This document shows, in pieces, positions 20,279 through 51,703 of a DNA stretch of 64,000 nt. A program made the translations under genes and the position numbers. Each line of letters begins with the position of its first letter. Position 1 is the stretch's first letter. The stretch is from Candidatus Latescibacterota bacterium (lineage in GTDB: Bacteria > Latescibacterota > UBA2968). The notes under the pieces were generated by a model. It was not told the origin of the DNA and ran no database searches. It saw only the letters and a list, made by a program, of their open reading frames with translations. The DNA lies in the NCBI GenBank assembly GCA_965205975.1, contig OZ242195.1, positions 5,312,001 to 5,376,000 on the forward strand, given 5' to 3'.

Positions 20279-22032
20279 TGGAAGAAGAGGAAATTGGTCA
20301 TAAGGGTTTTGATCTGCGTTTGATGGCGCGGTTGTTGAACTTTCTCAGGCCCTACGCCTGGTGGGTTATCCTCACGTTTGTGCTCATTATTGTCGCAGCG
20401 GTTGTGCGGCAGGCCGGGCCTTATTTGACCAAGATTGCGGTGGATGATTATATCGTGCCGGGAGATGTGGATGGGTTGACCTATCTGGTCATGCTCTATG
20501 TCGGTCTGCTTGTCGCGCAATTTGGCGTGGGATATTGCCAGAGTTGGACGACCAATATGATCGGGCAATGGGCGATGCACGATGTGCGGTTGCAGATTTT
20601 CATGCATTTGCAGCGGTTGCCCATGCGATATTTCGACCGCACGCCTGTGGGTCGTTTGATGGCGCGCAATACAAATGATGTGGATGCCCTCAACGAGTTG
20701 TTTACCGATGGCATTGTGTCGATGATCAGCGATATTTTTACGATTATCACCATTCTCGCATACATTTTTTATATGGATGTCACGCTCGGCGCGCTGATCT
20801 GTCTCGCATTGCCCGTGGCTTTTGTCGCAACCGTATGGCTGCAGAATAAGACCTTTTTTGCGTATCGCGTTGCGCGTACGCTGTTCGCGCGATTTAGTTC
20901 ATCGCTGCAGGAGACCGTGTCCGGGATGGAGGTGGTGCAGTTATTTGGTTGTGAAGATCGCTGTGTGAAGCGGTTTGAGGATCCGAATAAAGAGTATCTG
21001 GATGCGCGGTTACAGAGTTCGTTTTACCATGCGATTTATTTTCCGATTATGGAGTTGGGCGGTGTTTTGTTGTCCGCATTGGTGTTGTGGTATGGCGGCG
21101 TGCGGGTGCTCGACGGGGAAATCCAGTGGGGCGTGCTCGTGGCGATGTTGCAGTATGTTCCGCGGTTTTTTATGCCCCTCCGCGATATTGCCGATCGCTT
21201 TACTGTGCTTCAGGTTGCGATGGCGTCTTCAGAGCGCATTTTTGAGTTGCTGGATACAAAGCCAGAATCACTTGGCGGCACTGTGAAGGCCGATCACTTG
21301 AAGGGCGAGATCGAGTTTCAAAATGTCTGGTTTGCGTACAACGAAGGCGAATGGGTGTTGCGCGATGTGTCTTTTCGCGTTGCGCCGGGGCAGAGTTTGG
21401 CATTGGTTGGGGCGACGGGCGCGGGTAAGAGTACGGTGATCGGTCTGGTGTGTCGGTTCTACGATATTCAGCGGGGTGCGATTCTGGTGGATGGTGTCGA
21501 TATTCGCGAGTGGGATGTGGAGGAGCTTCGCAGACGCATTGGGGTCGTGCAACAGGATGTTTTTCTTTTTGCTGGCGATATTGAAGACAATATTAGCCTG
21601 GGACATCCGCGCATTAGCCGCCAGGAGGTCGAGCAAGCCGCGCGCGATGTCAATGCGGACCGGTTTATCGACAAGTTGCCCGATACATATCAGCACGAGG
21701 TCCTGGAGCGGGGCAGTTCGCTTTCGGTTGGTCAGCGTCAGTTGATATCTTTTGCGCGTACCCTGGCTTCTGGACCGGATATTCTCATTCTGGATGAGGC
21801 GACGGCGAATGTGGATACGGAGACCGAGATGTGGATTCAGGATGCGGTGGCAAAATTGATGCGGTCGCGGACTTCGATTGCGATTGCACACCGTCTTTCT
21901 ACCATTCGAAATGCGGATAATATTCTGGTGATGCACCGCGGGCAAATTCGAGAGGAAGGCGACCACGATACGCTGCTCCAGCAGAATGGGATCTATGCTC
22001 GGCTTTATCAGTTGCAGTATCAAGAGGAATAG
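20278..22032 (+). CDS. ABC exporter, fused permease/ATPase (MdlB-like subunit)
   Basis: GATGAGKST, LSVGQRQ, ILILDEAT; coupled to preceding gene. Confidence 0.92.
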   Translation: MEEEEIGHKGFDLRLMARLLNFLRPYAWWVILTFVLIIVAAVVRQAGPYLTKIAVDDYIVPGDVDGLTYLVMLYVGLLVAQFGVGYCQSWTTNMIGQWAMHDVRLQIFMHLQRLPMRYFDRTPVGRLMARNTNDVDALNELFTDGIVSMISDIFTIITILAYIFYMDVTLGALICLALPVAFVATVWLQNKTFFAYRVARTLFARFSSSLQETVSGMEVVQLFGCEDRCVKRFEDPNKEYLDARLQSSFYHAIYFPIMELGGVLLSALVLWYGGVRVLDGEIQWGVLVAMLQYVPRFFMPLRDIADRFTVLQVAMASSERIFELLDTKPESLGGTVKADHLKGEIEFQNVWFAYNEGEWVLRDVSFRVAPGQSLALVGATGAGKSTVIGLVCRFYDIQRGAILVDGVDIREWDVEELRRRIGVVQQDVFLFAGDIEDNISLGHPRISRQEVEQAARDVNADRFIDKLPDTYQHEVLERGSSLSVGQRQLISFARTLASGPDILILDEATANVDTETEMWIQDAVAKLMRSRTSIAIAHRLSTIRNADNILVMHRGQIREEGDHDTLLQQNGIYARLYQLQYQEE

Positions 22033-22068
22033 GGGATCGTCTGTTCTTTATTTTCAAGGAGGTACACC

Positions 22069-22950
22069 ATGTTATTCGGAGAAGGCGATTATCGGTACGA
22101 GGAAGTTGAGGGATGGGCGAAGTTGCCCGAGGGATGGGTGTTTACGCAGGTGTCGGATGCTGCGGTGGATTCACAGGGCCGCATTTACGCCTTTACGCGC
22201 GGGATTCATCCCGTGGTTGTGTTTGATAAGGATGGCAATTTTATTACGTCGTGGGGGTATGGCGATTTTGGTATTTCGCCGAATTTGATCAGTCAGTCAC
22301 ACGGTATTTTTATCGATCCGGATGATAAGGTGTTTTTGACCGATTCGTTTCAGCATATTGTCAGGCGTTATACCCGTTTGGGCGAGTTGGAGCGCGAATG
22401 GGGCAATCGCGGGGTTCCGGGTCCGACGTTTCACCGCAGGGAATACAATATGCCTACGGGGGTTGCTTATGCGCCAGATGGCAATTCGTTTTACGTGTCG
22501 GATGGGTATGGCAGCCGGTGTGTGCACAAGTATTCGCGCGAGGGCGAGCATATCGGGGTGTGGGGCGAAGGGGGGAGTGGGCCGGGGCAGTTTGCATTGG
22601 TACACAATATCGGGTGCGATAAGACCGGGCGGGTTCTGGTGTGTGACCGGGAGAATAACCGCATTCAGATTTTCGATCCAGATGGGAAGTTTATGGAGAT
22701 GTGGACAGATGTGATGATGCCGGGCGATGTGTGGATTACGGACGACAATACGATTTATGTGGCAGAGCAAGGGGGCGGGGGACGCATTAGCGTGTGGTCT
22801 GCTGATGGGGAGTTGATTTGCCGCTTTCAAGATCAGAGTGCTGTGCAGTCGCCGCACGGGCTTTGCGTGGATGACGAGGGCAGTATTTATGTGGCTGAGA
22901 TCGGTATGGAGGGAAAGGGACAGCGGTTGCAGAAGTTTGCGAGGGTTTAG
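22069..22950 (+). CDS. NHL-repeat beta-propeller protein (PAL-like)
   Basis: Repeated HGIFID / PTGVAY / HNIGCD / PHGLCVD blades, DRENNRIQIFD. Confidence 0.82.
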   Translation: MLFGEGDYRYEEVEGWAKLPEGWVFTQVSDAAVDSQGRIYAFTRGIHPVVVFDKDGNFITSWGYGDFGISPNLISQSHGIFIDPDDKVFLTDSFQHIVRRYTRLGELEREWGNRGVPGPTFHRREYNMPTGVAYAPDGNSFYVSDGYGSRCVHKYSREGEHIGVWGEGGSGPGQFALVHNIGCDKTGRVLVCDRENNRIQIFDPDGKFMEMWTDVMMPGDVWITDDNTIYVAEQGGGGRISVWSADGELICRFQDQSAVQSPHGLCVDDEGSIYVAEIGMEGKGQRLQKFARV

Positions 22951-22996
22951 GGTTTTCAGGTAACTACAACATAGCGAGGTCGTTTACTTTTTGTTT

Positions 22997-23740
22997 ATGG
23001 CTACACCAAATCGCATTCTCGAGCGTTATCGCAATGGCGAAAAAGCCGTTGGCGTGCAGATGAGTTTTGTTTCGGAAATTGTGATCGAAGTCGCGGCTAA
23101 GATGGGGATGGATTTTATTTCGCTGGATGGGCAGCACGGCGCATTGACGCTGCCGACTATTGAGACGGTCTGTCGCCTTTGCGATGCTTATGGTATGACG
23201 CCTACTATGCGGGTTGTGGATCAGTCCGAGGCGGCTATTTTAACGGCGCTGGACCGGGGCATGCAGATGATTACGGTGCCCAATTTGCAGACTGCTGAAG
23301 AGGCCGAGCGGATTGTCCAGTTTGGTTTTTACGGGCCTTTGGGACGGCGGAGCGCGATGAGCCAGCGCGTGGCTTATGGTTTGAATGATACCAGCGATAG
23401 TCGGAAGATTTTTGAGTTTACCAATGACAATACCATTATTGTACCGCAGCTCGAGAGCAAGACGGCTTTTGATAATTTGGATGAGATTCTTCAGGTTGAC
23501 GGGCTTATGTTTTTCGCGGGCGGTCCGCAAGATATCGCGCAGTCCATGGGGTATCCCGGAGAGCCGAATCATCCAGAGTGCATAGCGGCGTATGAGGCGG
23601 CGTGTGATAAAGTGCGTGCGGCGGGAAAGCACATGAGTGGCGATGTGATGGTTAGTTTGGATGCCTTTGGGGCGATCTACGATGCGGGGAAGGCGTTGCT
23701 CGAAGCACACGGCCGCGAGTGCGGTATGAAGATTGGTTGA
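22997..23740 (+). CDS. HpcH/HpaI aldolase family protein
   Basis: LDGQHG, P.G.RS, PQLES, GPQDIAQSMG motifs. Confidence 0.82.
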   Translation: MATPNRILERYRNGEKAVGVQMSFVSEIVIEVAAKMGMDFISLDGQHGALTLPTIETVCRLCDAYGMTPTMRVVDQSEAAILTALDRGMQMITVPNLQTAEEAERIVQFGFYGPLGRRSAMSQRVAYGLNDTSDSRKIFEFTNDNTIIVPQLESKTAFDNLDEILQVDGLMFFAGGPQDIAQSMGYPGEPNHPECIAAYEAACDKVRAAGKHMSGDVMVSLDAFGAIYDAGKALLEAHGRECGMKIG

Positions 23741-23748
23741 ATTGAGAG

Positions 23749-25164
23749 GTGCATTTGTCCAAGGCACAGGTTGAATCCGGGGAGGCGGAACCGCTGTCTC
23801 CTCGGGCGGCCCGGCGCGTGTTGATTAGCCTGATGTTTTCGTCTATGCTGATGCCTATGGTGTCTGGCATGTCGCGGGTTGCGCTGCCGGTTATTCGGGA
23901 TGATTTTGGGATTCCCGCGGATTTGACGGCGTGGGTTCTGGCAGCTTTTATGCTGCCTTTTGTCGTTTTGATGCCGATTTATGGGCGTTTGAGCGATGGC
24001 GTTGACCGGCGGCTGTTGATTCTGCTGGGGACTGTGATTTTTGGCGTTGGTTCTGCGATGACATTTCTGGCGCCGAATATGCGCTGGTTGATGGCCGGGC
24101 GTGCGATTCAGGGTATTGGCGTGGGGGGAATGACGCCGATGGGTATGGCGTTGCTTGTGTCGATTTTTAGTGCGGGAGAGCGCGGGCGCGTTCTGGGTAC
24201 GTGGAGTGCGGTGGGTCCGGCGATGAGTTTTTCGTCGTCGTTTGTCGCGGGTATTCTCATTGCGCTTTGGGGGTGGCGCGCCGCTTTTGTGCCGGGGCTT
24301 TTGCTCAGTGTTGTGACTTTTGTCGCGATTTACAGGGGGGTGCCTTCTCAGGTGATTGGGGAGGCGTCCAAATTTTTGCGGCAGTTTGATTGGGGTGGGG
24401 TCGGGTTGTTGTCGGGTGGGATTGTGTTTTTGATGTTTTACCTGTCCAGCCGGTCTGTGACGGGGGTTGCCCCTTTTGAGGATTGGCGATTGCTTTTGGG
24501 CGCGGGGTTGTTTTTCACGGGTTTCTGGTGGTGGGAAAGAGGGCGGAGAGATCCTTTTCTTCCGCTCAATTTTTTTGGCAATCGCATGTTTTGCCGGGTG
24601 ACGTTTTGCGCTTCGATGCGGATGTTTGTGCAGGGCGGTATTGGGGTGTTGATGCCGCTGTATCTGGTTGATGTTCACCGCATGGGTCCGGCACTGTTGG
24701 GCGTGTTTTTGATTATTAGCTCTGCGGCGATGACGCTGATTGTGCGGTTTGGCGGGCAGATGTCCGATCGTTTTCAGAGTCGGTGGCTGGTGATGATTGG
24801 GATGTTTGTGCAGTTGACGGTGATGCTGGGTTTTGCACATTTGCCAGATACTGTCTCGACATGGGTTATTGCTGGCTTGCTGGCGTATTATGGGCTTGGA
24901 GCGGGGTTGATGCTGGCGGCATTGCACAGTACGGTTATGGGGACTGTCGATTCAAATCAGATGGGGGCTGCTGCAGGGCTTTATAGTATGCTGCGGTTTA
25001 TGGGGATGGCGATCAGTACGGCACTGGTCGGGGTGGTGTTGCAATTTTTTTTCGATGCAAATCTGGCTACACTCGACGCGTATCAGAAGGTGTTTATGGT
25101 GCTTGCGATATTTCCCGTTCTGGGGATGGCGGTGGGGTTTGGGTTGCGGGAAAAGAGGTTGTGA
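23749..25164 (+). CDS. MFS transporter (DHA2-like)
   Basis: GRLSDGVDRR motif A, GRAIQGIG, ~14 hydrophobic helices. Confidence 0.88.
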   Translation: MHLSKAQVESGEAEPLSPRAARRVLISLMFSSMLMPMVSGMSRVALPVIRDDFGIPADLTAWVLAAFMLPFVVLMPIYGRLSDGVDRRLLILLGTVIFGVGSAMTFLAPNMRWLMAGRAIQGIGVGGMTPMGMALLVSIFSAGERGRVLGTWSAVGPAMSFSSSFVAGILIALWGWRAAFVPGLLLSVVTFVAIYRGVPSQVIGEASKFLRQFDWGGVGLLSGGIVFLMFYLSSRSVTGVAPFEDWRLLLGAGLFFTGFWWWERGRRDPFLPLNFFGNRMFCRVTFCASMRMFVQGGIGVLMPLYLVDVHRMGPALLGVFLIISSAAMTLIVRFGGQMSDRFQSRWLVMIGMFVQLTVMLGFAHLPDTVSTWVIAGLLAYYGLGAGLMLAALHSTVMGTVDSNQMGAAAGLYSMLRFMGMAISTALVGVVLQFFFDANLATLDAYQKVFMVLAIFPVLGMAVGFGLREKRL

Positions 25165-25344
25165 AATAGTTTACAGGATAAGCATATTATACGTTATTGC
25201 GACACCAAAACTACGATATGAATGGATGGCAAGTTATCGGCAAAGACTGTTTCTGAAAGAGTTAAAAGCGTTCTGTTGGCATCACTGATACTGGTAATAC
25301 CGTCGGTAAGAATGACGTATAGAGTGGGGGCGACCTCTTTGGCC

Positions 25345-25779
25345 TTATTGTGACACTAAAATTACCAGCCTTATAGATGATAGATTGTCGGCAAAAACTC
25401 TTTGTGCAAGATTTAAGATCAATAAGCCCGGATCAGTAAGAACTAAAACACCGTTACTAAGGACAACACTGAAATTTTGAGCAAGATAATCAAGAGGAAC
25501 GTATATTTCTGCGCCACTGAGCATTCCCTTGATATAAACCAACCGAAAACTCGTTGGCGTTATCCGACTATCTGCTATTAAAATTTGGTTGTCCTCATCA
25601 TACGAGGATCTAGAAAATGCAAGCTCAATAGCGACTTCATCTCTTCGAGGCCCTGGAGGGCCTTGATCCCCCTGTGGGCCTTGTGGGCCAGTAGGTCCCG
25701 CTGGCCCCATTGGACCTTCACACGCGCCAAAGCTAAAGGCTAACAAAACGAACAAAAAAAAGCGCAGAAAATCCACCAT
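25345..25779 (-). CDS. Lipoprotein with short collagen-like (Gly-X-Y)n segment
   Basis: Lipobox FGAC followed by EGPMGPAGPTGPQGPQGDQGPPGP. Confidence 0.75.
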   Translation of the reverse strand: MVDFLRFFLFVLLAFSFGACEGPMGPAGPTGPQGPQGDQGPPGPRRDEVAIELAFSRSSYDEDNQILIADSRITPTSFRLVYIKGMLSGAEIYVPLDYLAQNFSVVLSNGVLVLTDPGLLILNLAQRVFADNLSSIRLVILVSQ

Positions 25780-37803: not shown

Positions 37804-39197
37804 GTGCATCGTGGCAAAAAAGGTTCCTTGTATGATCAGCATTGCTTATCTTTGTGTGTCCGCCAAGCCTTCAGATAAAATTCGATCCCGTTTATAGTGC
37901 CTGTCTCATCGAGGTGTCCATGCCCGGTTATTACAAAAAAGCCAGCCCGTTGCCCATCAGCGTGATGCAACGTAGCGTCTTAGAACACATTGTCCAACGC
38001 CATACCAGTCGCCAAGACCATGCCCGCCGTGCGCGTATGATCCTGTTAAGCAGTGAAGGGTTAGGCATCGGTCAAGTCAGCGCACAAGTCGGCGCAGATC
38101 CAAAGACAGTTTCTACCTGGCGCAAGCGTTGGCTGGCAGGTTATGAGGCTCTCAAAGCGATGGAAGCCGAGGGCGATAGCCGTGCCTTGTCCGATGCGGT
38201 CTTATCCCTCCTATCGGATGCGCCCCGTCCAGGTACGCCTGTGAGGTATTCGGCACAGGTGGTCACAAAGATTGTGGCCCTCTCCTGTGAAGCCCCCAAA
38301 GCGTGTGGGTATCCCATCAGCCATTGGACGCCTCAAGTCTTGCGTGAAGCAGTCATCGCCCGCGGCATCGTCCCTGACATTTCCCTTCGCAGTGTGGGAC
38401 GTTTTTTAAAAAGAGGCCGATCTTAAGCCGCATCAAGTCCGGTATTGGGCGCGTCCTCCTGATGAAGATAAAGAAGCCTTTTACGAGGCAAGTGAAAAGG
38501 TCTGTGCCTTATATCAATCTGCTCTTGACCTTCACGAAGAAGGTGTGCATGTCATCAGCACAGATGAAAAAACGGGCATACAGGCCAAAGAACGTGCCAA
38601 ACCCACCCTACCGATGAAGCAGGGACGGGTTGAACATCAGGAGTTTGAATACAAAAGACATGGCACCTGTTGCTTGATTGGCAATTTTGAAGTCGCCACA
38701 GGGCAGGTGATTGCCCCAACCTTATCCCTAACACGAACAGAGAAAGATTTTAAGACGCACATCCAACAGACCTTTGCACAAGACCCAAAAGGTGAGTGGG
38801 TCTTTGTCGTGGATCAACTCAATACCCATAAATCGGAAGCCTTAGTCCGATGGGTGGCTGATGTGTGCGACATTCAAGACGATTTAGGGGAAAAAGGCAA
38901 ATACGGGATTCTAAAATCTATGCAAACCCGGGCCGACTTCCTCAGCAATCAAGCCCACCGAGTGCGCTTTGTTTATACCCCTAAACACGCCTCGTGGCTC
39001 AATCAGATTGAATGCTGGTTTTCTATTCTCGTGCGACGCCTACTCAAAAGAGGGAGTTTTACCTCTGTCCAAGACCTCCAGCAATCGCTTTTGGATTTCA
39101 TTGCCTTTTTCAACAAAACCATGGCCAAACCGTTTAAATGGACCTATACCGGAAGACCCCTTAATCTATAACACCAATGACTTTTGCCACGATGCAC
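37804..39197 (+). mobile_element. IS630-family insertion sequence
   Basis: Terminal inverted repeats GTGCATCGTGGCAAAA / TTTTGCCACGATGCAC, flanked by duplicated TA within CTAG. Confidence 0.93.
37920..39171 (+). CDS. IS630 transposase split in two frames (HTH part 37920-38426; DDE part from ~38410)
   Basis: HWTP..L, then in +1 frame EADLKPH..RYW, STDEK, YKRHGT, DQLNTH, TPKHASWLNQIECWF; T6A5 run at the junction. Confidence 0.88.
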
Positions 39198-45724: not shown

Positions 45725-45772
45725 TAAAAAAATAGGCCGCGGTCTCAAGGGATCGCGGCCCGATTTTTTTTC
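45725..45772. terminator. Bidirectional terminator between convergent genes
   Basis: A-run, GGCCGCGGTC...GATCGCGGCC stem, T-run. Confidence 0.65.
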
Positions 45773-46163
45773 ACGCCTTTCCCGGACGGCCTATTTCGAT
45801 GAGGTTGCCGTCCGGGTCGTGTACGAAAACATAGCGCGTGCCGTCGTGTGGCCGCACGCCGGGGCCAGAGGCAACGCGCACGCGTTCGCGGTCGAGCGAG
45901 GTGATGACGCGATCGAAGTCGGCGACTTCAAAGGCGATGTGGCGGCGCGAGGGACGGGGGTATTCCTCGGCGAGGATCAGGTGGATTTCGATGTCGCCAC
46001 AGCGATACCAGGCACCAGCAAAGTCGTAATCTGGCCGGGGAATGGGTTGCAGCCCCAGGAGCTTTTCGTAAAATGCCGATGCGCGCTCGAGGTTACCTGT
46101 AACCAATGTGATGTGACTGACGCGCGTGATGCCCAGGCCAGCCGATTCCATGCGATTGGCCAC
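45771..46163 (-). CDS. VOC/glyoxalase family protein
   Basis: HITLVT...FYEKLLGL, HIAFEV, FVHDPDGNLIEI. Confidence 0.88.
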   Translation of the reverse strand: MANRMESAGLGITRVSHITLVTGNLERASAFYEKLLGLQPIPRPDYDFAGAWYRCGDIEIHLILAEEYPRPSRRHIAFEVADFDRVITSLDRERVRVASGPGVRPHDGTRYVFVHDPDGNLIEIGRPGKA

Positions 46164-47049: not shown

Positions 47050-47367
47050 GTATTTCCCCCGTGACTGAGAAAACGACTCTCTTGATCGAGTGTCTTGTGT
47101 TTCAACTCGTCAAAGGTTCACAATAAGGGAAGCATATACTGTGATACCTTCCGACTCCTGTATGGGAGAGAATCGGTTGTTGTCAGAATATATGGCGCAT
47201 CGATCATGGGGAAACCAATGGCCTGATTATGTGACAACCTGGTTTAGGGGAGTGTTACTTTGGGGAGTTGATCTGGATGGGAAAACGATCACGAGCCGCA
47301 GGGGAGCGGTGTGCTCGACCAAATCATAGTGTGTGTGGCAAGTATTGGGGAAAAAATAATACTTGGG
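47050..47367 (-). ncRNA. Putative structured 5' leader/ncRNA with repeated UCCC-loop hairpins
   Basis: At least six hairpins with TCCC in the loop; G-U pairs favour the minus strand; see findings. Confidence 0.5.
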
Positions 47368-47372
47368 CAGAC

Positions 47373-47401
47373 AAGATAGCGGATTCAATTCTGTAATGCA
47401 A
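47373..47401 (-). promoter_or_regulatory. Predicted sigma-70 promoter for the leader and sigma gene
   Basis: TTGCAT-17 nt-TATCTT. Confidence 0.5.
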
Positions 47402-47544
47402 CCCTTTTTCTATGCTCTTCTCCTGATATTTTGAAACTCAAGGCCGTATTTTTAGATGAAATACTTATTGGCATATTGAGAGAAAATAATAAATAGAGTT
47501 TTATTTGTCAATAAATAACTCTTGTTTAACAAGTTACAGGCTTG

Positions 47545-48063
47545 CTACTGGCCCTCGGCAGTATCGGTGCCATTGAGCGGGCGCTGGGCGAGGTCGCGGT
47601 CGAGTAAGAATAAGCCGTTGCCCTCTATGCCGACCAGCTTGATCGTGTCGATCAATTCCCTGACAACGGCTTCTTCTTCGACTTGTTCGGCAATAAACCA
47701 CTGGAGAAAGGTATGGGTGGCGTGGTCGCGTTCGGACAGGGCGAGATCGGCGATGTTGTAGATACTTTGAGAGACTTTTTGCTCCTGGGCAAGGCTGTCT
47801 TCAAATACTTCCAGAGGGCTGTCCCAACTTTGTTTGGGGGTATCAATGGTGCTAAAGCGTATATCGGCTTCGCGGTCGTCGAGGAAGTCGTATATTTTCA
47901 TGCCATGGGTGAGTTCTTCCTGGGCCTGAACGCGCATCCAATGGGCAAAGCCATTGAGATTTTGCGTGAGAAAATACGCGGACATTGCCAGATAACTATA
48001 CGCCGAGTAGTATTCCATATTGAGTTGCTCATTGAGCGCGGCGTTTATGTTTGTGTTAATCAT
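47545..48063 (-). CDS. Non-heme ferritin
   Basis: LNEQLNMEYYSAYSY, QAQEELTH, FLQWFIAEQVEEE, LFLLDR. Confidence 0.93.
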   Translation of the reverse strand: MINTNINAALNEQLNMEYYSAYSYLAMSAYFLTQNLNGFAHWMRVQAQEELTHGMKIYDFLDDREADIRFSTIDTPKQSWDSPLEVFEDSLAQEQKVSQSIYNIADLALSERDHATHTFLQWFIAEQVEEEAVVRELIDTIKLVGIEGNGLFLLDRDLAQRPLNGTDTAEGQ

Positions 48064-48337
48064 GATGTCCTCCTGTTGCGAGAGGGAGAAAAAAGCTGTA
48101 TCCAAAAGGGAAGGGTAAGTATAAGAAAAATATAGGTTTTGTCAACCTATTAAAATAAGTAATTGATTATACTTTTGTTAGAGCAATAAACCCCCAATGG
48201 TATAGCGAATTTTTCTATTGATTCTTTTTGCGAAATTGCGTAAAACTTTATAGTATTACGCTTCGTTTCCAAACGCGGAGCATTTGACTACCCCAGTGTG
48301 GCCCATAAGCCACCCGACAGGAGGTTTGTTTTTTCTT

Positions 48338-48817
48338 ATGATTCCCAATAAGGTCCTCATGGCCTTGAACGAACAGCTCAATTTTGAGTTCCATTCGGCA
48401 TTTCACTATCTCGCCATGGAGACGTATTTTCACGGGGTAAATCTGCACGGGTTTGCCCATTATATGCGCGAGCAATACAAAGAAGAACGTCAGCACGCGC
48501 TCAAGATTGTGGATTATATCAATGCGCGGAACTGTCGGGTCCTGCTCAAGCAGATCGCCGAACCCCCTTCTGAATGGGCATCACCTCTGGAGGTTTTTGA
48601 AGATGCGCATCGGCAAGAGCAGAAATCCAGTGGGATGATTAATGATCTGGTTGATCTCTCACTGAATGAGCGCGATCATGCAACGGAGATTTTCTTGAAG
48701 TGGTTTATCGAGAAACAGGTAGAAGAGGAGGCGCAAATCAGCAGTATTGTGCAAAAGTTGAAGCTGGTAGGCGATGACGCTTATGGTCTGTTTTTATTGG
48801 ATCGAGATATGGGATGA
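48338..48817 (+). CDS. Non-heme ferritin (second, divergently transcribed)
   Basis: LNEQLNFEFHSAFHY, KEERQH, FLKWFIEKQVEEE, LFLLDR. Confidence 0.9.
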   Translation: MIPNKVLMALNEQLNFEFHSAFHYLAMETYFHGVNLHGFAHYMREQYKEERQHALKIVDYINARNCRVLLKQIAEPPSEWASPLEVFEDAHRQEQKSSGMINDLVDLSLNERDHATEIFLKWFIEKQVEEEAQISSIVQKLKLVGDDAYGLFLLDRDMG

Positions 48818-48838: not shown

Positions 48839-48871
48839 AAAGTGCCCTCAGCATCTGAGGGCACTTTTTTT
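48839..48871. terminator. Bidirectional terminator
   Basis: AAAGTGCCCTCAG-CAT-CTGAGGGCACTTTTTTT perfect stem between convergent genes. Confidence 0.8.
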
Positions 48872-49625
48872 ATATGCGACGGCGCTTTCGAGTGCGCCAC
48901 CAGATGACCAGGCCAGAGATGGACAGGCCGATCAGGCCCCAGGCGGCGATGTCGTAGAGATAGACAAACCAGTCGGCGAAGAAATAACCGGTGTGAATCT
49001 GGTGTATGATCGTGTAGAGATCGCGTCCGGGTTCTGCGGATTGGGCGATAGAGACCCAGGTTTTTCCGCCGTTGGAACTGGTGAGCAGGCCGCCTGAGGT
49101 CCACAGGTTCAAATTTTGGGTGGAGCCAATACCAATGCGCTGGAGGCGAATGCCTTCGGCAAGAGGCATAAATCCGAGGCCGACTTGCTCCCATACGATG
49201 CCGCCGTCGGTTGAGCGAATGAGACCAAGGTCTTCGAGGACGACGTAAATGTGGTCGGGATTGTCGGGTGCGTAGGCGATGTCAACGGCGCGTTCTGCAG
49301 CGAAGAGCATTGGGACCTCGGTCCAGGTTTTGCCGCCGTTTTCAGAGGAATAAAGAGCCGAGCGCGTGCCGCGATAGAGGTGTTGGGGATCGCGGGGGTC
49401 AACCGCAAAGGAGAGGGTGCGTTCAGAGGGCGCGCCGAGCAGGCCGGGGTGATTGAGCAAAAAGCCCGAGACGGCGAGGAGTGATAAAAATGTGAGTGCG
49501 CCGATGCCGACATAGCGATGGAGTTTGCGGAAAAATTCGGCGCGTTTTTTGCGCGTTTTGGGCTGTTTTTTGTGAAGCGGGATGGTTTTGCTCCGGCGTG
49601 TGGAGGCTTCAGGTGTAGCACTCAT
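48870..49625 (-). CDS. PepSY-associated TM protein with Asp-box (BNR) periplasmic region
   Basis: RKLHRYVG, SGFLLNH, three SxxGGxTW boxes, IHQIHTG, SGLVIWW. Confidence 0.78.
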   Translation of the reverse strand: MSATPEASTRRSKTIPLHKKQPKTRKKRAEFFRKLHRYVGIGALTFLSLLAVSGFLLNHPGLLGAPSERTLSFAVDPRDPQHLYRGTRSALYSSENGGKTWTEVPMLFAAERAVDIAYAPDNPDHIYVVLEDLGLIRSTDGGIVWEQVGLGFMPLAEGIRLQRIGIGSTQNLNLWTSGGLLTSSNGGKTWVSIAQSAEPGRDLYTIIHQIHTGYFFADWFVYLYDIAAWGLIGLSISGLVIWWRTRKRRRI

Positions 49626-50209
49626 TGGGATTCTTTTTCCGAGTAAATGACATCGAGGACTGTGAGAACTCTCTTCACGCCCGCATTTAAGGCGCGTACC
49701 GATAGGGTTGCGCCACTGATGCCGATAATGTCGCGGTTGAGACGAATGTGATGATCGATGTTTTTGTTTTTGTATTGGGTCAAGAATCGCTGGCGTTTGA
49801 CCTGACCGCCTCGCGATTCTCGATAGACCATGATCCATACACCGCCAACGCGGTGGTCGGGTTTGACTTTGACGATGAAGGTGATGGGTTTATAGAGGCC
49901 AATTTGATTTGTGATGATCGCATATCCCTGATGTCGGTCATTTTTTTTTGCCTGAAAAATCGTGAAATCGGGTTCTTCGAGGCGCCATCCCAACCGCCGT
50001 TCAATGCGCTGGCGTTCTTGTGGGGTTGGGGTCCAGACTTCGCTCCAGAGCGTGTCTGCATCTGGGAAGGCTTTTTTTAGAGCCTGTTCTTCTGTGAGGT
50101 AAACAGTGATAGCCTCTGGGCCATCGGGACCCTGTGCGAATCCAAGTCCCGACAGGAGGCAGACCATGATGCAGAACACGTACTTATTTTTTCTCACTGT
50201 TTTCTCCAA
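49622..50209 (-). CDS. FMN-binding domain protein
   Basis: Signal peptide, YRESRGG, flavinylation motif ISGATLS. Confidence 0.8.
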   Translation of the reverse strand: MEKTVRKNKYVFCIMVCLLSGLGFAQGPDGPEAITVYLTEEQALKKAFPDADTLWSEVWTPTPQERQRIERRLGWRLEEPDFTIFQAKKNDRHQGYAIITNQIGLYKPITFIVKVKPDHRVGGVWIMVYRESRGGQVKRQRFLTQYKNKNIDHHIRLNRDIIGISGATLSVRALNAGVKRVLTVLDVIYSEKESQ

Positions 50210-50218
50210 CTCCTTTTT

Positions 50219-51337
50219 TTAGAAATACGATGCAATCGAAAAGAAGAGGCGTCCAATGCCATCGCCTTTGTCGCCATTTGCTGGCGTTTTATAGGTGGTG
50301 TTGTAGTCCAGCTTGAAAGCCGTGTCTTCAACGGGGCGGAAGTTCAAACCGAAGGTGATCCCGTATTCCGAATCGCCACTTACCGAGGTATCAAAATCGA
50401 CCCAGTCCCAGCGTGCGACGGCTGTGAACACGGATTCTGATAAGAAATGATCGTGCCCAAAATGAAGGTTGGTTTGTGCATAAGCACCGCGCTGGTCGCC
50501 GTTAAATCCATCGGCGGTGGCCTGTCCGTATTCGCCCTGAAGTTCAAAGGGTCCCTGTGTAAATTGCGCGTCGGCACCGAAGATGGAGAGGCGGTTGTTG
50601 TCCGCATCGTCGTATTTGCCCGTGTGGAAAGACGCGCCGAGGTCAATGCCCAGGCGCGGGCTAAAGCCGAATCTTCCGACGAGTGCTTTGTCGTGGTTGT
50701 TGTCCGTTTTTTGGCTGCCTCGTCCGCTTCGAATGCGGAGTTTGCCGCCGGAGTTGACTTTTTCGTTGAATCCGTTGACGAGATAGATTTCATAAGTTGC
50801 TACGGAGAGTTCAGAGGGATAAAAGGTGCCAAAGAAGCCCATTCCCGCTTCCGAGAGGGTGGATGGCATGATCTGACGGTTCACGGTGGGGCGTTCAGTC
50901 AGGTCGTTGAGCGGGCTGTCGTGCAAGAGGTTAAAACGTCCGAGTGGGGAGAGGATGACACCGCCCCGATAGTTGAAGGCTTCTGTAAAGGTGAAGTCCA
51001 TGATGGCGAATTCGAGTTTGATTTCGCCATCGGTGTTGCTGCTGCCTTTGACGAGACCGCCGTGCTCAAATTCAATTTCGCATGAAACGTGAATTCGGTC
51101 GGTGATTTCCGAAAAGATGAAGGGGATGAAACGGTGCTGGTCAAAGGTGCTGTCTTTTCCTTCTGTCCACTCAAATTCGTGGTCAATATATCCGCCGATA
51201 GCTACATTTCTGCCCATGCGTTTGATATAGGGTTTGTCGTATATACTGCCGGGCAATTCGGGTCGTTTGTCTTCTTCGGCTATGATGGGTAGTGCGAGTG
51301 TGAGAGATAAGAACGAAGCGAGCAGTTTGAAGCGCAT
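50219..51337 (-). CDS. Outer-membrane porin-like beta-barrel
   Basis: Signal peptide, EIEFEH, GRFNLLH, FKLDY, C-terminal Phe. Confidence 0.75.
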   Translation of the reverse strand: MRFKLLASFLSLTLALPIIAEEDKRPELPGSIYDKPYIKRMGRNVAIGGYIDHEFEWTEGKDSTFDQHRFIPFIFSEITDRIHVSCEIEFEHGGLVKGSSNTDGEIKLEFAIMDFTFTEAFNYRGGVILSPLGRFNLLHDSPLNDLTERPTVNRQIMPSTLSEAGMGFFGTFYPSELSVATYEIYLVNGFNEKVNSGGKLRIRSGRGSQKTDNNHDKALVGRFGFSPRLGIDLGASFHTGKYDDADNNRLSIFGADAQFTQGPFELQGEYGQATADGFNGDQRGAYAQTNLHFGHDHFLSESVFTAVARWDWVDFDTSVSGDSEYGITFGLNFRPVEDTAFKLDYNTTYKTPANGDKGDGIGRLFFSIASYF

Positions 51338-51703
51338 GTTTTTCTCCTGTGTAAAACACAAGACTATTCAAAGTGGGTTGACATGGTGCGTGGAATACCC
51401 TACTTTGAATATGAGTTGTGCTTTTGGTGTGACTCAGACCATCTTCCGCCGGGCTGGCAGGCTCTTGAAACGGGAGGTGGTCTTTTTTGTTTGGCGGTCT
51501 ATAAAATTGTTTTACTAATAAAACAATCGCCCAATAAATAAAACAAATGTTGGGTATATGTCAACAAGTTTTTTTATTTTTTTCTCAAATTATGATAAGT
51601 CAGATTAATTTAACTTTGGCGATCAACTGAAAAGGGTTGAATTTTCGGGGCAAGTACCTATTATAGCGCAGTGTTTTTTCGATCTCAATGCGAGGAGAGT
51701 TAA

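Follow-up and report, generated by a model that had tools for sequence, protein, structure and literature searches.

The DNA window analysed here, a stretch of 64,000 nucleotides from a Candidatus Latescibacterota bacterium, contains on its minus strand a long non-coding leader situated between a ferritin gene and the gene of a 293-aa sigma factor (Table 1). The genome encodes seven RpoD/RpoS-like sigma paralogs, the 293-aa one included. Orthologs of this paralog were found in 55 out of 168 genomes of the phylum, comprising the order and one sister family, and 52 of the 53 genomes of the order possess it. As a different paralog is both more conserved (88-100% identity across the order) and more widely spread (93 of 168 genomes), the 293-aa protein, a lineage-restricted paralog, is likely alternative rather than housekeeping. 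The glyoxalase/VOC-family gene is a probable operon partner of the sigma gene. On the other side of the leader, the place of ferritin is taken in many other genera by a sigma-54 activator gene. In this window there are two divergently transcribed ferritin genes (47545-48817), and upstream of ferritin PepSY-TM/BNR, FMN-binding and porin-like genes follow in series (48870-51361), possibly forming an iron-uptake cluster. A putative split IS630-type transposase is present as two consecutive ORFs at 37842-39171, judged from sequence only.

Table 1. Features of the sigma locus (positions in the window) and of the other RNAs carrying the UCCCC motif (positions in G000 C1).
Feature	Position	Strand	Remarks
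Glyoxalase/VOC-family gene	45771..46163	-	Directly 3' of the sigma gene; its neighbour likewise in another genus
Sigma gene, RpoD/RpoS-like, 293 aa	46168..47049	-	Regions 1.2, 2, 3 and 4
Shine-Dalgarno sequence GGGGGA	47055..47060	-	In 49/49 order orthologs
Two dispensable 3' hairpins, UCCC loops 47167-47164 and 47130-47127	47118..47176	-	Never TCCCC; deleted in 2/20 relatives
Helix GTTGTCA/TG(A/G)CAAC around hairpin 47198-47220	47179..47238	-	Loop UCCCC 47212-47208
Single-stranded linker, UCCCC 47266-47262 and 47251-47247	47247..47266	-	Predicted Shine-Dalgarno partners
Helix around hairpin 2 (47296-47309, loop UCCCC 47305-47301)	47269..47326	-	Predicted fold; motif 47282-47279 in internal loop; one-sided A-U/G-U changes
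Hairpin 1, UCCCC 47351-47347 in loop	47339..47365	-	8 pairs invariant in 20/20
Proximal promoter TTGC(A/G)T-17-TATCTT	47373..47401	-	Predicted start near 47364-47368
Upstream sigma-70-like promoter TTGACA-17-TATTTT, putative	47483..47511	-	10/12 consensus match; seen in 13/18 genus loci scanned
Ferritin gene	47545..48063	-	Upstream of the leader in this genus
smc leader, 0-6 UCCCC	G000 C1 about 105730-105915 (L223; relatives L165-L184)	-	Downstream of conserved promoter
XRE-divergent RNA, ~240 nt	G000 C1 4185529-4185769 (L216:930-1170)	+	Strongly covarying
Stand-alone RNA, ~280 nt	G000 C1 about 4567770-4568050 (L344:1501-1780)	-	Converges on rlmH 3' end

The TTGCAT-17-TATCTT promoter reported in the initial annotation is indeed found at 47401-47373 on the minus strand. 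In all 20 genus loci its -10 box is invariant and its -35 box is invariant at five of six positions, as are several positions of the spacer. From the putative promoter further upstream a longer transcript is possible. Part of the region is contained in 18 RNA runs, and relatives occur in sponge and marine RNA runs. In four runs from four studies, contigs of related strains span the leader and the sigma gene, which are joined on single contigs in two of the runs; such contigs attest presence only, with no strand, start or level, library DNA is a possible source, and a joined contig is no proof of one transcript. In run X13 the contig depth, when summed, is near 400 and decreases to 48 on the upstream side of about 47400, contigs being unable to show strand, start or level, and a contig of run X8 continues through ferritin. 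One RNA-run contig carries a 79-nt deletion variant of the leader (window 47087-47167), and two related genomes have a comparable deletion.

Eight UCCC motifs had been described in the leader, visible on the plus strand as GGGA or GGGGA. All eight are there, starting at 47127, 47164, 47208, 47247, 47262, 47279, 47301 and 47347, and the only TCCC on the plus strand of the region is that of the sigma Shine-Dalgarno sequence, whose complementarity to UCCCC was also verified. The number of motifs is above that in shuffled sequence: dinucleotide shuffles contain 3.0 on average, and 12 out of 10,000 reach eight. Such a density is not unique, since 25 other 260-nt windows of the genome hold at least eight TCCC or GGGA. 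Among 1,176 upstream non-coding regions of at least 200 nt, which rest on a crude gene finder, the leader is tied first for TCCC (two regions have eight) and tied second for TCCCC, with two other leaders of this genome equally rich in TCCCC.

The proposed minus-strand orientation agrees with the folding z-scores, -4.05 for the minus strand (0/100 shuffles as good) and -0.93 for the plus strand (19/100). In the predicted fold, five motifs occupy the tips of hairpins, a sixth lies in an internal loop and the remaining two belong to a linker, so that display in hairpin loops stands for five motifs rather than the six originally claimed. The GATC/GATC hairpin is absent from this fold, motif 47282 (motifs are named here by their first position on the minus strand) lying in the internal loop of the longer helix around hairpin 2. 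Similarly, the inner stem around motif 47212, given before as CAT-GG/CC-ATG, is corrected to CATTGGTT/GATCGATG. The suggested Rfam search was run and the leader had no match at E values up to 10; nor were there gathering-threshold matches in 19 related loci. No terminator-like site was found in the leader. A leader peptide was also considered; ORFs of at least 20 aa overlap the leader, and one candidate, a short ATG frame near the 5' end, was rejected since its start codon is lost in several relatives. An antisense CsrB-like RNA on the plus strand was rejected as well, given the shuffle-like folding of this strand and a search for CsrA that found none.

The leader is single-copy in this genome and present in all 20 other genus genomes searched. 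One leader split over two contigs was excluded, and the genus alignment thus consists of this genome and 19 others (n = 20). Four of the eight motifs are nearly invariant, with TCCCC in 20/20 at 47305, 47266 and 47212 and in 19/20 at 47251, and two are partly kept (47351, 15/20; 47282, 13/20). The last two are no real members: motif 47167 is TCCCC in 0/20 and TCCC in 14/20, motif 47130 is private to this genome (1/20), and the 3' hairpins are altogether missing in two genus genomes. Of the cells in the 35 pairs, 97.9% can pair, and the outer helix GTTGTCA/TG(A/G)CAAC is 100% paired, with a U-A/U-G change. Most of the 35 pairs never vary, and the two pairs with double-sided changes are both in the inner helix at 47198-47220. 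G-U pairs, regarded earlier as support for the minus strand, outnumber A-C cells by 112:3, which favours this strand, albeit in a structure itself derived from it. Since double-sided changes in 2/35 pairs are no better than shuffles (150/500 match them), and since the consensus fold energies of the two strands are close (minus -41.7, plus -40.0), covariation inside this leader is suggestive only.

Between genera the sigma leaders are unalignable, and DNA similarity finds none in other genera. The motif is nevertheless kept. When each of the 11 genera is represented by a single leader, TCCCC is counted 40 times vs. 11.8 expected, and without the discovery genus 34 times vs. 10.8, a number reached in 0/1,000 shuffles. 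Chance or composition as the source of the excess is ruled out by these shuffles, also with the discovery genus excluded; individual sigma leaders are often not significant alone. No enrichment was seen for ACCCC, GCCCC or the three-C versions, nor for CCTCC (10 vs. 8.8 expected), and GGGGA occurs 0 times in the sense leaders vs. 2.1 expected. The C-run is exactly four in 40/40 motifs, and the next base is A or U in 38/40 and C in 0/40, whereas 232 of 1,030 intergenic TCCCC are followed by C. Beyond one base the motif flanks have no conservation. These counts define the signal as UCCCC, an exact pentamer whose next base is mostly A or U. The motif C's are predicted to be less paired than other C's in 10/11 genera, and in 10/11 genera the sense strand has the lower folding z-score, while unrelated stems surround the motif in different genera. 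Hairpin-closing motifs make up 37 out of 108 in 25 leaders, compared with 24% and 18% in two controls, and spacings between motifs scatter from 7 to >100 nt with no peak at 10-11. A genome-wide leader bias for TCCCC was considered, and none was observed, as there is no sense bias (268 vs. 271). The initial annotation had left a choice between a cis-regulatory leader, a trans-acting multi-seed sRNA and a multivalent binding platform. Its RNA-level interpretation was borne out. The first option is supported, as the motif accompanies this one sigma gene in each of the 11 genera, and the leader is a real, order-wide regulatory leader. It is also an undescribed one: no description of the leader or of a UCCCC system was found in the literature searched (mainly freely readable texts).

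In eight of the 52 sigma loci (L105, L118, L121, L122, L123, L131, L132, L134) a sigma-54-type -24/-12 site is present downstream of every UCCCC motif, and a transcript started at such a site would be devoid of the motifs. No sigma-54 site was found in the sigma loci of this genus. In loci L118 and L122 the last codons of the sigma-54 activator gene persist after gene loss as a perfect Shine-Dalgarno-like AAGGAGGTG with no start codon.

The motif is not confined to the sigma leaders. A search for further members examined tandem-motif loci in two other genomes, 59 in total, taking every one of 29 matches in the first and 30 of 133 in the second; a long CRISPR array with TCCCC in its repeat (G000 C1 about 20500-25750), which dominates naive motif scans, was masked in the motif scans. 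The search gave sigma, smc and XRE-divergent leaders and, as an extra find, one methylase-like gene with three motifs (24% identity), and the distant genome led to a stand-alone RNA. With the same motif in three other RNAs, the option of a multivalent binding platform gains ground. The smc leaders without the genus of discovery contain 16 TCCCC vs. 7.0 expected (0/1,000 shuffles reach this). Their enrichment is uneven, with none in two of the 10 genera shown and none in one genus without a leader. Their Shine-Dalgarno sequence is of the ordinary AGGAGG type, some of the motifs are 10 nt apart, and the promoter spacer holds an ACAAGAT motif, which we take to resemble an NrdR box.

The XRE-divergent RNA lies upstream of a coiled-coil gene and divergent from an XRE-family regulator. 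Its features include 4-7 UCCCC motifs, an operator-like palindrome and a U-run preceded by a helix, and double-sided changes occur in 20 of its 43 pairs around an invariant CUCCCCA loop. TCCCC occurs 17 times vs. 3.8 without the genus of discovery (0/1,000 shuffles). The RNA was observed in only five genera and is retained in one genus where the coiled-coil gene appears degraded. An Atlas search with the coiled-coil protein gave only clusters without names.

The stand-alone RNA consists of a conserved promoter, a variable 5' part bearing the 1-6 UCCCC motifs and a covarying 3' rod with double-sided changes in 12 of 24 pairs. The bulge of the rod has an invariant core, UCUCUCC, and the fourth C is missing there in three groups. 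TCCCC is enriched without the genus of discovery (32 vs. 12.8; 0/1,000 shuffles). The RNA is single-copy in 50 of 53 order genomes, and in a search of 150 genomes 46 matched, all inside the order. It has no Rfam match; tmRNA, RNase P and SRP-like RNA were rejected as identities because they lie elsewhere in the genome. No 6S RNA match was obtained anywhere in this genome, and the stand-alone RNA may be a very divergent 6S. The gap between zapA-like and RNase Y-like genes is the usual position of 6S RNA; here a gap of ~110 nt between such genes (L383, G000 C1 2558200-2558900) gave no 6S match. The shared range of these RNAs could reflect shared ancestry, and even the weakest reading leaves three undescribed conserved RNAs defined.

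What the sigma motifs do may be sought first in their own mRNA. GGGGGA is present as the Shine-Dalgarno sequence in one of three sister-family loci as well as throughout the order, and in just 22 of the 4,364 predicted genes (0.5%) of this genome, where the 16S 3' end is canonical. The equilibrium model predicts pairing with it at 0.67 for motif 47251, 0.15 for 47266 and 0.10 for 47282, about 0.95 in sum, RNAalifold also pairs 47251 with it, and when the motifs are taken out in silico its opening cost drops from 7.95 to 5.67 kcal/mol, a difference of 2.3. One could thus envisage a control purely in cis, in which redundant anti-Shine-Dalgarno registers are escaped by a downstream transcription start and the other UCCCC RNAs are unrelated. 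The sigma-54-type sites in 8/52 loci and the different Shine-Dalgarno sequence of two of the three sister-family orthologs are in line with this, but the lack of a sigma-54 site in this genus is not. Shuffled leaders occlude the Shine-Dalgarno as strongly (8.25 vs. 7.95 kcal/mol for the real one) and the pairing register varies between genera, both of which limit the cis-pairing reading; in three of 11 other leaders motif removal changes the opening cost by <0.4. A further limit is set by five-C motifs, which would pair better with the five-G Shine-Dalgarno and are absent from the 40 counted, and most motifs are in loops or registers predicted to be unpaired with it. Pairing with the own Shine-Dalgarno is not the whole story, because the pentamer is enriched in the smc leader with its AGGAGG, in the XRE-divergent RNA and in the stand-alone RNA. 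The pure anti-Shine-Dalgarno idea leaves the smc leader and the strict four-C length unexplained, and we regard control entirely in cis as unlikely.

Because the motif is conserved even in RNAs lacking a Shine-Dalgarno to match it, a reader acting in trans is implied. The motifs could in principle serve as DNA operators, either for a MraZ/AbrB-like repressor or as enhancer sites of the upstream sigma-54 activator. The 10-nt distances in smc and the activator gene and sigma-54 sites of several genera would suit such operators, but not the scattered spacings of the sigma motifs, the position of motifs in loops of the covarying stems of the XRE-divergent RNA, or their persistence where activator gene and sigma-54 site are missing. 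The MraZ operator in particular was rejected, as that of this genome, in the mraZ leader, consists of GTGG repeats. Operators are on these grounds very improbable. Another candidate is the housekeeping machinery, with the motifs as entry sites for Rho loading or for the KH domains of RNase Y, PNPase or NusA, leading to attenuation or processing. Rho prefers C-rich RNA and is present, as are three KH_1 proteins; against this, the C-rich rho leaders are not enriched in TCCCC (8 vs. 7.4 expected), the genome shows no sense bias for it, and the sigma leader is structured. We consider such entry sites distinctly improbable. A single in-frame TAG was seen in the rho gene match of both genomes of one genus (L259, L262).

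The reader could also be RNA. A network of base-pairing sRNAs would have the stand-alone RNA, and possibly excised leaders, repress G-rich ribosome-binding sites including that of this sigma gene, as C-rich loops do in sX13, RsaE and LhrC (PMC3771888, PMC2790875 and PMC4132741). The stand-alone RNA and the GGGGGA sigma clade have one range, but the sigma start region ranks from 14th to 1,248th of 4,364 over the motif windows, no terminator was found in the leader, and a seed carried by the target mRNA itself is left unexplained. Such a network is thus quite unlikely, and the initial option of a trans-acting multi-seed sRNA is weak for this leader, in which neither a terminator nor extended complementarity to the sigma start region was found. 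Since no motif window singles out that region and the flanks are conserved for one base, the data fit either a protein or an RNA whose seed is short and fixed. The footprint of a protein and that of a G-rich small RNA would be the same. Comparable to RosA or RsaI, such an RNA would pair with UCCCC and thereby open the Shine-Dalgarno, an anti-antisense action like that of DsrA on rpoS. A fixed (A/U)GGGGA(A/G) partner would account for the exact four C's and their flanks, RosA binds C-rich sRNA regions through its G-rich regions (PMC8216469), and the XRE-divergent RNA has one such G-rich site. That RNA, however, was seen in only five genera, and the flanks are conserved for a single base. Clusters of GGGGA in the intergenic RNA of this genome, moreover, were limited to CRISPR or palindromic repeats, to the UCCCC RNAs read in antisense and to uncalled genes. 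A G-rich reader therefore seems to us rather unlikely.

The reading that we favor, with a probability of about 0.4, is a sigma leader that displays UCCCC sites to a trans-acting reader, probably a protein, controlling sigma output post-transcriptionally. With no factor bound, the linker motifs are predicted to pair with the Shine-Dalgarno and translation would be damped. The factor, specific to the lineage and acting in trans, would most probably be an RNA-binding protein; on binding the loop and linker UCCCC motifs it would free the GGGGGA Shine-Dalgarno and switch sigma on, and the stand-alone RNA would titrate it, as CsrB titrates CsrA. Searches for the usual proteins gave no CsrA (PF02599), Hfq, KhpA/B or RRM in this genome (98% complete) and no SpoVG in 26 genomes. 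Only three KH_1 matches were found, all in large proteins of 543-714 aa, and scans of small ORFs and cold-shock genes gave no self-regulated candidate. It is likely that an undescribed network acting at the RNA level has the leader among its targets, and a larger UCCCC-based network probably includes it. A tentative and somewhat doubtful extension is a global system of the whole order, in which an RNA-binding protein reads single-stranded UCCCC in the sigma, smc and XRE-controlled leaders and is titrated by the ~280-nt stand-alone RNA, sigma being turned on via GGGGGA release. If true, this would be CsrA/CsrB in mirror image, and in bacteria for which the searches gave neither CsrA nor Hfq. 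Global regulators that recognize RNA by its sequence are known in small number from bacteria, and the usual ones searched were not found here; a five-base motif in four unrelated RNAs across the order points to a missing regulator and supplies baits for it. Alternative-sigma control in a widespread uncultured lineage also becomes testable with reporters.

Several known systems share features with the one described here. In its proposed mode of working it comes nearest to a CsrA/CsrB regulon, and its motif resembles those of RsaE, LhrC and sX13. The MraZ-type operator differs in its direct repeats of about 10-bp period, which are lacking here. The E. coli rpoS leader is activated by DsrA and RprA through an anti-antisense mechanism. 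Like it, the leader studied here is a long leader of an alternative sigma gene predicted to occlude its own ribosome-binding site, but it does so with only 5-6 bp in several alternative registers and no single long inhibitory helix, and Hfq was not found. In RsaE and RNAIII of S. aureus, LhrC of Listeria and sX13 of Xanthomonas, as here, several C-rich motifs are unpaired and match a G-rich ribosome-binding site by complementarity (PMC2790875, PMC4132741, PMC3771888), unpaired motifs here being those of predicted folds. They are stand-alone trans RNAs, whereas our motifs are in the 5' leader of the mRNA bearing the matching site, and in the leader, unlike these UCCC-motif sRNAs, no terminator was found and there is no Rfam match. 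The G-rich sponges RosA (B. subtilis) and RsaI (S. aureus) resemble our case in that a single partner recognizes C-rich motifs in a number of RNAs (PMC8216469); here mRNA leaders are among the C-rich RNAs, and the search for a G-rich partner found none. The cuckoo/CcsR RNAs also consist of modular hairpins with C-rich loops and variable stems and are bound by a small protein, CcaF1 (DUF1127), as described in PMC8034643. Their loop is CCUCCUCCC, and no enrichment of CCTCC was seen here; the cuckoo RNAs come from alphaproteobacteria and derive from 3' UTRs, and instead of an adjacent DUF1127 gene the leader has ferritin, sigma and glyoxalase genes as neighbours. CsrA/RsmA with CsrB/RsmZ differ in that their motif is GGA instead of UCCCC, the latter being the complement of the Shine-Dalgarno and not part of it. 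In addition, CsrA (PF02599) was not found here, the stand-alone RNA has 1-6 motifs, and the leader carries its GGGA copies on the antisense strand, whose folding resembles that of shuffles. Activation through the opening of a Shine-Dalgarno hairpin is also known for CsrA (PMC7652899), and both systems have one short motif repeated in loops, in several mRNA leaders as well as in a stand-alone RNA.
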